Virus record (IMG/VR): IMGVR_UViG_3300032236_001191
Coordinates: 1 to 64,000 of that record
Length of the DNA stretch: 64,000 nt
Origin: a virus
Reading direction: 5' to 3' (one strand)
This document shows, one piece after another, positions 1-10,505 of the stretch. Under the pieces are notes generated by a model, which was not told where the DNA came from, searched no databases, and was given only the letters and a program-made list of their open reading frames with translations. Each line of letters starts with the position of its first letter. Positions within the stretch are counted from its first letter, which is position 1. The position numbers and the translations under genes are program-made.

Positions 1-4
1 AAGG

Positions 5-32
5 GCGGGGGAAGGGAGAAGCCTCCCCCCGC
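5..32 (-). terminator. GC-rich hairpin downstream of the 45-599 gene
   Basis: GCGGGGGAGG-CTTCTC-CCTTCCCCCGC on the minus strand just past the stop codon. Confidence 0.55.
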
Positions 33-44
33 TTGCTTCATCAA

Positions 45-599
45 CTATGCGTTAACGAGAGCCTTTTCTTGATTTGGTGTCGCTACTACCGCACCCTGCG
101 GTAGAAGGGCTTCCAACTCTTTGATAGCGGTGATAACGCTATCCACCATACGAGGTGTAGGGTTGGACATAGCCGCAAAAGCAACTGTCAACTGAGAGAT
201 ACGGGCGTTGATGGACTTACCCAACGCTTCGCCAGTATCACCTAGCATAAGTTTCTTAGCGGCTGATTCCTCGTTCTCAGCAGACAACGCATCATCTAGA
301 GATGTGAGTTGTGCCTTGATTGAGTTAGTGTCTGCTTTGAGGTTAATCTTGTCAGACTTCGCATAAATAGCATCTGCGAAGCCATAGACATAGTCAGCAG
401 ACAAGCCCTTATGTGCGACTAGATAACCGCCAAACTGAACTACCATCTGACGGCGATTTAGGTCAGTGAAATCAAGCGGGGAGATAGATGAGTCAGACTT
501 ATAGTAGACTGAAGCATCGTTCATACCCGCAATATAACCATCTTTACCTGAACCTAGAATAGCGTTCAGACGAGTTAGGTTTTCTTTCGCTGTGGACAT
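45..599 (-). CDS. hypothetical protein (184 aa), divergently transcribed
   Basis: ORF with SD AGAAAGGTAG upstream; no recognisable motif. Confidence 0.75.
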   Translation of the reverse strand: MSTAKENLTRLNAILGSGKDGYIAGMNDASVYYKSDSSISPLDFTDLNRRQMVVQFGGYLVAHKGLSADYVYGFADAIYAKSDKINLKADTNSIKAQLTSLDDALSAENEESAAKKLMLGDTGEALGKSINARISQLTVAFAAMSNPTPRMVDSVITAIKELEALLPQGAVVATPNQEKALVNA

Positions 600-634
600 A
601 GAACTACCTTTCTTGTAAGTGGCAGAGATTGCCG

Positions 635-666
635 TGCCCCTGAAAGGAGTTGAACCTCACAGGGGC
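635..666 (-). ncRNA. tRNA minihelix-like element (acceptor stem plus T-arm) in the 5' leader
   Basis: GCCCCTG-TGAGG-TTCAACT-CCTTT-CAGGGGC-A: 7-bp stem, 5-position stem, canonical T-loop. Confidence 0.5.
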
Positions 667-972
667 GACAAGATAGGCTCTAATGCTCGCTCTAACATTT
701 CGGATTTGTTCCGTTTCCCTATTGTACTTTTCCGATTTGTTTGCTTAAGTCCCCCCCGTACCCTTAAGTCCGTTTTGTCCGGTTTGTCCACCAGGTGAGA
801 CTGATTGTTGGCATCTATGATCATAGACAGTAGCCTTTTGTGTTACAAGTCGGGGGGAGTGTGATCGTCACCACATGGAGTTTATTCCCAAGGAGGTAAA
901 TTTTTTTCAAGGTCGGGGGAACTAAGGCAGTAGCTTTGGTGTAGACTAGCGTCATTACGAGAGGGAATACTA

Positions 973-1458
973 ATGACTAAAGACATTTATGGTAGTCGTG
1001 TAACTGGTGGGCTAGGTCCTGCAGCTGATAACCTCTTTGATCCTGCAGCAAGAGAGGCAGCAGTAGAGCGTTCCATCCAACACTCCATTAATGAGGAGAA
1101 CGCAGGCCGTAGACCACTGATTCCTAGTGGTAGATTATTCTCATCTATATGTGGACCAGGTTACGAAGAGATTGATGCTCCTACTACTGACCCCTCTAGA
1201 CCACGAGCCCACAAGTGCTGCTACAACCCTAATGCAGGTTCGGCGGACAACTCAGGCTACTTGGCTATTATGATGCGTGATATGAGCCTTATTGGGTACG
1301 ACAACGTCACTCAGGACATGTGGGACGAGCTAAAGTCGATTGACTCTACCCATACCTTCATCAATACCACTCTAGGTGGCTGGCAGTGGGAGAAGACTTC
1401 CTATGGTCAGCTCCCCCGAACCCGTCCACAATCTTTCAATCTAGGGACACAAGAGTAG
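973..1458 (+). CDS. KTSC-domain-like protein
   Basis: C-half YNP..GYLAIMMRD..IGYDNVTQDMWDELKSIDSTHTFIN matches the KTSC pattern; SD GAGGGA. Confidence 0.55.
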   Translation: MTKDIYGSRVTGGLGPAADNLFDPAAREAAVERSIQHSINEENAGRRPLIPSGRLFSSICGPGYEEIDAPTTDPSRPRAHKCCYNPNAGSADNSGYLAIMMRDMSLIGYDNVTQDMWDELKSIDSTHTFINTTLGGWQWEKTSYGQLPRTRPQSFNLGTQE

Positions 1459-1512
1459 CTTCTAGCCCTCCGGTCTGCTATGATTGACTCCTACACACCG
1501 GAGGGAACTGTA

Positions 1513-2088
1513 ATGACAACTATTGCTGCTATCCAAGGAGATGGATGGGTAGTTATGGGTTCAGATACTCAAGGAACTTATAACGACTCTAAGAATCTTT
1601 ACATGGTAGGACATAAAGTTTACGATAACAATGGCATTCTAATTGCTGGTTGTGGTATGGGTCGTGGTTTAGATCTCATGCACAAGGCATGGAAGGCACC
1701 GAAGCCAACTAAGAAGTTGTCCATAGACCAGTTAGAACTCTGGATGGCACGTACATTCATCCCTAAGATGCGTCAGATGTTCATTGACTCTGGCTATGAC
1801 ATGAAAGATGACGGAGACTACGCCCAGCACGAATCCGTCTTCCTAGTTGCAGTCCAAGGAACTTTATTTATTATTGATGACGACTACTCTTTCGACCGTG
1901 ATGCCCGTGGTGTGATCACATCTGGCTCCGGCGGTGACTATGCAGCTGGAGCACTCTATGCTCTTGACTCTAAAAAAGCTAACACCGTTGAAAAAGCTAA
2001 AACGGTCCTCCGGAAAGCTGTGGATGCTGCAAAGGAGTACGACATCTATTCTGGGGGAGAAACCCGTATTTACGTACAAGAAGCGTAA
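1513..2088 (+). CDS. proteasome-beta/HslV-like Ntn hydrolase (Thr protease)
   Basis: M-TTIAAIQGDGWVVMGSDTQ N-terminal Thr, conserved K, SGSGG..A.GAL and D.YSGG motifs; SD GAGGGA favours ATG 1513. Confidence 0.85.
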   Translation: MTTIAAIQGDGWVVMGSDTQGTYNDSKNLYMVGHKVYDNNGILIAGCGMGRGLDLMHKAWKAPKPTKKLSIDQLELWMARTFIPKMRQMFIDSGYDMKDDGDYAQHESVFLVAVQGTLFIIDDDYSFDRDARGVITSGSGGDYAAGALYALDSKKANTVEKAKTVLRKAVDAAKEYDIYSGGETRIYVQEA

Positions 2089-10235: not shown

Positions 10236-10237
10236 AG

Positions 10238-10309
10238 CTCTCCCCCAAGGACTCGAACCTCGATAGGCGGAACCAGAATCCGCAGTCTTGCCAATTAGAC
10301 GAAGGGAGA
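10238..10309 (-). tRNA. trnQ: tRNA-Gln(CTG), CCA not encoded
   Basis: Cloverleaf TCTCCCT/GGGGAGA, anticodon arm GCGGA-TTCTGGT-TCCGC, T-loop TTCGAGT, U1-A72, G73. Confidence 0.93.
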
Positions 10310-10432
10310 AAGAATGCTGGTGGGTCTACGAGCAGACTAACCCACCAGCTTGATACATGAGGCTTTACATAAGCTCGTTGGCCTCCAGATGTCCCCACAG
10401 TCGACAAGGCAACCATGGCATCCTTAGTATCG

Positions 10433-10505
10433 CTGGACAACCTGGGCTCGAACCAGGGACCTGGCGATTAACAGTCGCCTGCTCTGCCAACTGAGCTATT
10501 GTCCA
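10433..10505 (-). tRNA. trnN: tRNA-Asn(GTT), CCA not encoded
   Basis: TGGACAA/TTGTCCA acceptor, GGCGA-CTGTTAA-TCGCC anticodon arm, T-loop TTCGAGC. Confidence 0.95.

Follow-up and report, generated by a model that had tools for sequence, protein, structure and literature searches.

An acceptor stem stacked on a T arm, without the rest of the tRNA, is the classic minimal laboratory substrate of RNase P, RNase Z and the CCA-adding enzyme. Cutting of message leaders is known from a different type of signal. At the RNase III sites of T7 early mRNAs, in the lambda N leader and in E. coli adhE, a cut in the structured leader reportedly exposes the ribosome-binding site by taking away an occluding element, or provides the message with a stabilising hairpin. 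For tRNA-type signals, hairpins composed of an acceptor stem, a T-stem and a T-loop are cut correctly and efficiently by bacterial RNase P, and replacement of the T-loop impairs the reaction (reviewed in PMC11143913). The model substrates of McClain, Altman and Kirsebom combine a 12-bp helix with a T-loop and a discriminator, and RNase P cuts them at the canonical site whether or not its protein subunit is present (PMC11143913). The t-elements of plant mitochondria, identified in a screen for GGTTCRANYCC, lie in mRNA leaders and trailers and set the 5' and 3' ends of the messages via RNase P and RNase Z; like the tRNA-like elements of Haloferax, they keep the acceptor stem and the GGTTCRANYCC T arm within a non-canonical fold (PMC1920247). 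MALAT1/mascRNA and YrlA, the latter of which occurs in mycobacteriophages (PMC4201824), are likewise tRNA-like modules that are located inside or beside other RNAs and recognised by tRNA enzymes.

Here, we describe an acceptor/T-arm minihelix in the leader of a phage gene. In function, it would be closest to the t-elements and the laboratory minihelix substrates. As in the t-elements and their Haloferax counterparts, the acceptor stem and the GGTTCRANYCC T arm are retained, and the position ahead of an open reading frame is common to the minihelix and the t-elements. Unlike the t-elements, it belongs to a bacterial phage, is bare, lacking a D arm or anticodon-like arm, and is set within a junction that masks the Shine-Dalgarno sequence, where it would be cut. 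It has the same 12-position helix, T-loop and discriminator as the RNase P model substrates, but whereas those were designed with an RCCA end, the minihelix is natural, embedded in a longer transcript and followed by C-G. It also differs from MALAT1/mascRNA and YrlA, in which both D and T arms remain as part of a cloverleaf-like core. No report of a minihelix in a phage mRNA leader was found in the literature searched, in which such a role is described for plant mitochondria and Haloferax.

Genome setting and host

The window, that is, the whole stretch of DNA analysed (64,000 nt), corresponds to the first 64 kb of the 100,557-bp IMG/VR record IMGVR_UViG_3300032236_001191, which is rated complete by CheckV. 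Searches against the GenBank phage collection yielded no match at either the DNA or the protein level. Nearly all genes between position 973 and about 89 kb are oriented rightward, and a leftward block occupies 89.7-100.1 kb. The minihelix sits in a 373-nt gap between divergent genes (600-972), flanked on one side by the leftward open reading frame P184 and on the other by a rightward block that opens with a 161-aa open reading frame and a gene for an HslV-like peptidase (Table 1).

The phage encodes three WhiB-type regulators, indicating that its host is almost certainly an actinobacterium and not a member of the Saccharibacteria. The relatives of the phage come from lake metagenomes. Together, the HslV-like peptidase and the three WhiB genes are host-range clues that point toward freshwater Actinobacteria.

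Table 1. Features of the P184 locus, with the minihelices of three related loci
Feature	Position	Strand	Sequence or basis
Acceptor/T-arm minihelix	635..666	-	GCCCCTG-TGAGG-TTCAACT-CCTTT-CAGGGGC-A
Acceptor-like stem, 7 bp	666-660/642-636	-	sequence, fold
T-stem, 5 positions	659-655/647-643	-	sequence, fold
T-loop TTCAACT	654-648	-	sequence
Unpaired discriminator A	635	-	sequence
C at tRNA position 74, then G	634	-	C invariant in the four minihelices and in the larger tRNA-like elements of G001 and G004
-10-like hexamer TACAAT	721..726	-	TAAAAT, TATAAT and TAAAAT in relatives; TAnAAT in four leaders
Hairpin hp0, CGGA-acaaa-TCCG	701..713	-	predicted transcript 5' end
Anti-Shine-Dalgarno strand GCCTATCTTGT, 5' strand of P1	668..678	-	pairs with 616..606
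3' strand of P1, ACAAGAAAGGT	606..616	-	contains Shine-Dalgarno GAAAGG (612..607)
Hairpin hp2, GGCA-atctc-TGCC	621..633	-	starts one base after C74
P184, 184-aa all-helical protein	45..599	-	open reading frame list; gene of the leader
GC-rich hairpin just past the P184 stop	1..40	-	terminator-like, without U tract; absent from terminator-scan output
HslV-like peptidase gene	1480-2088	+	adjoins the control region
tRNA genes (n = 2)	10237-10309, 10432-10505	-	ARAGORN: tRNA-Gln, tRNA-Asn
WhiB-family genes (n = 3)	genome 59493-59690, 69460-69681, 96685-96891		
Minihelix of L027			GTGCTCA AAGGG TTCAACT CCCAA TGAGCAC G
Minihelix of L031 (duplicate L098)			GTATGGG TTGGG TTCAACT CCCAG CCCATAC A
Minihelix of L100			GGGTGGA GTCCG TTCGATT CGGGC TTCACTC A

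Anatomy of the minihelix

The original prediction described a minus-strand minihelix without D or anticodon arm, about 35 nt ahead of a start codon, and proposed that host tRNA-processing enzymes might cut or stabilise the message. Reading of that strand from 666 to 635 returned exactly the sequence given there, and the start codon, ATG at 599..597, lies 35 nt downstream of A635. The 5' strand of the acceptor stem directly abuts the T-stem, as had been claimed, so that no tRNA cloverleaf is formed. The description as a 7-bp stem on a five-position T-stem stands for the overall anatomy, the TTCRANY loop and the discriminator, and needs qualification for the T-stem, which comprises two G-C pairs, an A-T pair, a G.T pair and a T.T mismatch, 11 of the 12 helix positions thus being paired.

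The predicted folding energy is -23.6 kcal/mol (z = -6.2 relative to shuffled sequences). By chance, 0.26 matches to GGTTCRANYCC are expected in the window; the 100.6-kb genome contains three, namely, the minihelix and two real tRNA genes. Hairpins with a TTCRANY loop and at least 11 of 12 stem positions paired occurred at an average of 0.04 per simulated genome and were present in 8 of the 200 genomes simulated. An origin of the minihelix by chance or decay is unlikely, the conservation described below being the stronger evidence. The locus displays structural features of a tRNA-like processing element, namely, a helix of 12 positions, a 7-nt UUCRANY loop, the G53:C61 pair, a discriminator and a tRNA-type 3' flank. 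ARAGORN called neither a tRNA nor a tmRNA at the minihelix, and no Rfam family, YrlA included, was assigned to it; the Rfam tRNA model had no match at E<=10 within 400-1000 and none at gathering score across the window.

Conservation in related phages

Related loci were fetched via the neighbouring HslV-like gene and via P184, the P184-based searches contributing three foreign contigs, and four independent leaders were compared: that of the phage itself and those of L027, L031 and L100 (L098 duplicates L031 and was counted once). The P184 homologues are 36-46% identical to P184 in L027 and L031 and about 40% identical in L100. All three foreign loci contain an equivalent minihelix on the same strand, and in each it precedes the homologous gene's start codon by 35-41 nt.

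The original prediction had proposed covariation, and recurrence in this genome and in related phages, as checks on the element. The stems do covary among the four leaders: 93.8% of the cells in the four-sequence alignment are paired, and 10 of the 12 pairs have changed on both sides. None of 500 shuffles matched the observed paired fraction or the covariation score, only one of 500 matched the count of doubly changed pairs, and the signal was lost when the partner strand was slid. Invariant features are G1:C72, G53:C61, a helix length of 12 bp, a loop of 7 nt and the presence of a purine at position 73. The T-loop is TTCAACT in three leaders and TTCGATT, another canonical loop, in L100, and one or two non-pairs are found at the junction of the acceptor and T-stems in the phage itself and in L027.

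Recurrence held for the relatives, where the minihelix occupies one syntenic slot, but not within the genome, which has no second copy. A covariance model (R1), built from the four minihelices and used to scan the genome, 82 loci and ten related records, yielded no further copies; besides the known minihelices, its matches were limited to true tRNAs and a pair of larger tRNA-like elements. With one copy per genome, the minihelix does not constitute a general punctuation system in this phage. No exact copy of the 32-mer is present in IMG/VR, a metagenome scan with leader motifs that excluded the minihelix recovered only the relatives already known, and matches to the pattern ACGGGGGG...GGTTCAACTCC were mostly true tRNA arrays. 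Five complete or near-complete relatives lack P184. A shared sequence, ACGGGGGGGACTTAAG, was dismissed as a coincidence; it is the anticodon arm of tRNA-Leu(UAA) in other phages.

Public gene calls of some P184 homologues begin upstream and read '...GSTP...', which is translated GGTTCAACTCC, suggesting that the motif may also be present in a further clade (P0018-P0020). The N-terminal extensions with '..GSTP..' in P0001 and P0018-P0020 are probably gene-call artefacts.

The provenance of the element was assessed in light of a match outside the phage group. In one Saccharibacteria MAG, a tRNA-Arg(CCT) (L110:1250-1322, plus strand) ends in exactly the 22 nt that form the 3' half of the minihelix. 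Acceptor stem (GCCCCTG/CAGGGGC-A), T-loop and 3' strand of the T-stem are common to the tRNA and the minihelix, 30 of the 32 minihelix positions being identical (counted by eye). Such a match is what one would expect if the element had decayed from a tRNA-Arg through loss of the middle part, or if it were an attP core (the phage half of a tRNA integration site), perhaps with a function at the DNA level; these are the two origins named by the original prediction as evidence against itself. Both are argued against by the covarying stems, the kept tRNA features and the lack of a recombinase. The 5' strand is retained directly next to the T-stem and covaries with the 3' strand, and the stems of the relatives differ. 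PF00589 and PF00239 had no match in the 100.6-kb, CheckV-complete record and did match control genomes; given that a co-evolving 5' strand is present and that neither a tyrosine nor a serine recombinase is encoded, an attP site is unlikely. Furthermore, the host signal is actinobacterial rather than saccharibacterial, and one exact match of a tRNA-like 22-mer among about 186,000 genomes is, by our estimate, within the reach of chance. We regard the Saccharibacteria match as either a chance event or a trace of a distant origin from a tRNA that had its middle removed; conversion would be a third way to account for it. As an account of the present element, a remnant or an attP core is extremely unlikely, being largely refuted by the covariation of the stems.

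The tRNA-type 3' flank

To the features inside the helix, the four loci add a common flank. The minihelices of the phage, L027, L031 and L100 are followed by A-CG, G-CG, A-CG and A-CT, respectively, the first letter being the discriminator. For comparison, position 73 was located through acceptor pairing in the true tRNA genes of the phage group (28 distinct genes, from the related loci scanned). C74 is present in 27 of the 28, and the base that follows is G in 13 genes, T in 9 and C in only 4. The shared C74 with a following G or T suggests that minihelices and true tRNA genes may undergo the same 3' processing. There is a second possible cause for the conservation of C74, since in the minimum free energy folds of L027 and L031 this base pairs with a G located a few nucleotides upstream. 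CCA is encoded neither after this minihelix nor in the other minihelices or the tRNA genes of the phage group, and no CCA-adding enzyme was found in the phage.

Larger tRNA-like RNAs are encoded by G004 (L103:1457-1537, plus strand) and G001 (L104:1464-1536, plus strand), two complete relatives without P184, with a WhiB-like gene about 200 nt downstream. Both lack a D arm and consist of an acceptor stem of 7 bp, a canonical T arm followed by A-CG, and a central hairpin of 7-9 bp with a CU-rich loop of 17-19 nt that resembles an anti-Shine-Dalgarno sequence. The stems covary between G004 and G001, and ARAGORN calls no tRNA at these sites. Another relative without P184 carries, at about 564-614 of L023 (minus strand), a hairpin of 22 positions, 21 of which are paired, with a ttcaacg loop.

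Architecture of the leader

The leader shows about 74% nucleotide identity among the three closest sequences, which exceeds the identity of the proteins. The TAnAAT hexamer, conserved in all four leaders, is likely to be the leader promoter, with a start predicted near 714; the sole report of a consensus promoter scan was another, non-conserved site at 848..820. Hairpin hp0 is predicted in all four leaders with differing stems (GCCG/CGGC, GGTC/GACC and GGAT/ATCC in the relatives) and is separated from the minihelix by a conserved single-stranded stretch.

Two elements of the leader go beyond the original prediction, namely, a helix that masks the Shine-Dalgarno sequence (P1) and a second hairpin (hp2), and they make the idea of a cut that activates or stabilises the mRNA more concrete. 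Immediately 5' of the minihelix, 8-11 nt are complementary to the Shine-Dalgarno region in all four leaders, the core of this strand being CCTAYC (CCTTTC in L100). As MAFFT aligns the Shine-Dalgarno strands inconsistently across leaders, P1 was assessed through duplexes predicted for each sequence separately. The four duplex energies are -13.3, -11.1, -8.7 and -8.1 kcal/mol, and the four p-values from shuffling are 0.0025, 0.0125, 0.0185 and 0.12; pairing is much weaker for other windows of these leaders. Close to the junction, P1 displays compensatory differences between leaders (TCTTGT/ACAAGA, CTG/CAG and CCG/CGG). Hairpin hp2 begins 1-5 nt past the discriminator in all four leaders and has a covarying stem of 4-5 bp (GCGG/CCGC twice and GGAGC/GCTCC in the relatives) and a 5-nt loop. 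In the minimum free energy folds of the phage, L027 and L031, P1 closes a three-way junction with the minihelix and hp2. In L100, the complementarity of the two strands exists, but the minimum free energy fold pairs both of them otherwise.

Two further pairings were considered and rejected. Pairing of the Shine-Dalgarno sequence with the 3' strand of the T-stem (CUCCUUUC in the phage's own element) is not conserved in the relatives, and neither is a pseudoknot between the T-loop and a conserved AAAUGUUA box.

The masking of the Shine-Dalgarno sequence by P1 in four of four leaders, in which all helices covary, could by itself account for the arrangement. The junction would then govern access to the Shine-Dalgarno sequence through co-transcriptional folding, temperature or ribosome standby, as purely structural translational control in which no tRNA enzyme takes part. 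The T-loop would serve as a module for tertiary contacts, and T-loop modules do occur outside tRNA. What has been kept, namely, GG-UUCRANY-CC, 7+5 bp, G1:C72, a purine at 73 and C74, nevertheless exceeds the needs of a 5-nt T-loop module, and no conserved partner of the loop was found within the leader. We consider purely structural control unlikely.

A terminator is a further way to explain a strong, GC-rich hairpin at this site: the minihelix would be the factor-independent 3' end of a short RNA from the A-rich GGACAAA-repeat region upstream, and its likeness to tRNA would be incidental. The hairpin is followed by CGGCAATCTC rather than by a U tract, which actinobacterial terminators often lack, and the terminator scan is silent at this site. 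However, the conserved -10-like box is only about 48 nt upstream, and a terminator would not need a T-loop, a fixed length of 12 bp or an adjacent strand pairing with the Shine-Dalgarno sequence. Termination is thus a very unlikely function of this hairpin.

Upstream of the -10-like box, GGACAAA / CGGACAAAN repeats recur with a period of about 9-10 nt (window 745-800, minus strand). The same repeats are found in L031 (about 1090-1150, minus strand) and L100 (2214-2368, plus strand); there are about three copies in the phage's own genome, and the array of L100 spans about 150 nt. The divergent control region may use them as operator or iteron-like sites, and two conserved motifs, GGCYACTGT and ACGGGGGGG, are found nearby.

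The P184 gene

No function could be assigned to the product of the downstream gene. P184 belongs to no Pfam or PHROG family, and none of the 24 clusters of its homologues has a functional name. The AF2 model (pLDDT 83) found no Foldseek match in PDB or BFVD and nothing in the protein atlas, and VIA-align gave Z <=6, on helical repeats, with no convincing fold match. At the other end of the contig (genome 100370-100440), there is a GGGGGGAC-AAAGGCTACT..TGATAG motif pair resembling the 856..820 region, which hints that, if the genome is circularly permuted, related control sites lie on both sides of P184.

The identity of P184 bears on the possibility that the minihelix is a tRNA mimic that is bound and not cut. 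It could be an operator, with P184 or another phage protein repressing translation by locking the masking junction, or a decoy that titrates a host enzyme or toxin acting on acceptor ends. The conserved tRNA features also fit binding, and the minihelix forms an arm of the junction that hides the Shine-Dalgarno sequence, a layout typical of translational operators. As for the decoy, toxins that target acceptor stems, such as MenT, exist in Actinobacteria (PMC7450476). Against the operator, searches with P184 detected neither a family nor a fold linked to RNA binding or to tRNA; against the decoy, a single copy in cis per genome would make a poor one. Moreover, the tRNA-type 3' flank and the strict 12-bp length are features that processing enzymes read. 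Overall, a mimic that is bound and not cut appears rather unlikely.

A putative processing signal

The simplest explanation of the conserved features is a factor that reads the top half of tRNA. We favour, at a probability of roughly 0.5, the interpretation of the minihelix as a t-element-like signal, through which the P184 mRNA would be activated and stabilised by processing. The observations behind this interpretation include the following: the geometry of the tRNA top half is kept in four leaders while 10 of 12 pairs change on both sides; the 3' flank is of the tRNA type; the element stays in a fixed slot, 35-41 nt before the same gene and on the same strand; and in all four leaders the 5' flank can form P1 with the Shine-Dalgarno sequence, a helix that appears in the minimum free energy fold of three. 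Compared with leaders processed by RNase III, the proposed signal mimics tRNA instead of forming a long duplex, so that the enzymes involved would be RNase P or RNase Z, and not RNase III.

Starting from the folds, the conservation and covariation, and the tRNA-type flank, we infer the following path from transcription start through cleavage to activation and stabilisation of the message. The leader would be transcribed from the conserved TAnAAT promoter, about 48 nt upstream of the minihelix, and would fold into the 5' hairpin hp0 and the three-way junction of P1, minihelix and hp2. In this state, P1 would hold the Shine-Dalgarno sequence paired to the anti-Shine-Dalgarno stretch just 5' of the minihelix. 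Host RNase P might cut between C667 and G666, an RNase Z-type tRNA 3' endonuclease might cut next to A635/C634, or both might act. Either cut would separate the anti-Shine-Dalgarno strand from the message and, hence, free the ribosome-binding site, and both cuts would release a 32-nt minihelix RNA. Following a 3' cut, after position 73 or 74, hp2 would become the 5' end of the mRNA. A stem-loop at the 5' terminus guards mRNA against decay that depends on the 5' end.

Several observations stand against this processing model. Between P1 and the RNase P site, the predicted folds have just 1-6 unpaired nucleotides, and a double-stranded 5' leader within a closed junction could hinder RNase P. CCA is not encoded, C74 is paired in the predicted folds of L027 and L031, the helix has non-pairs in the phage and in L027, and the two strands of P1 pair otherwise in the L100 fold. 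Each genome has one copy, and the comparison covers four independent sequences.

An extended version of the processing model adds a role for the released RNA. The leader would act as a one-shot translational switch, in which the cut by a tRNA enzyme turns P184 on, and the excised 32-nt minihelix, provided with CCA, persists and occupies or titrates factors that act on acceptor ends, such as MenT-type toxins or tRNA-modifying enzymes of Actinobacteria. We consider this extension unlikely.

Implications

The distinctive feature is a bare, 32-nt, single-copy minihelix in a structured leader, linked to a helix that masks the Shine-Dalgarno sequence and to a trailing hairpin. The combination of minihelix and masking helix suggests a simple way to tie translation to tRNA-type processing, and the minihelix leader would provide a small, naturally occurring module for programming RNA processing in Actinobacteria. 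If the bare minihelix is indeed a selected element of the phage leader, phages would be using the tRNA-maturation machinery of their hosts for the processing of their own mRNAs.
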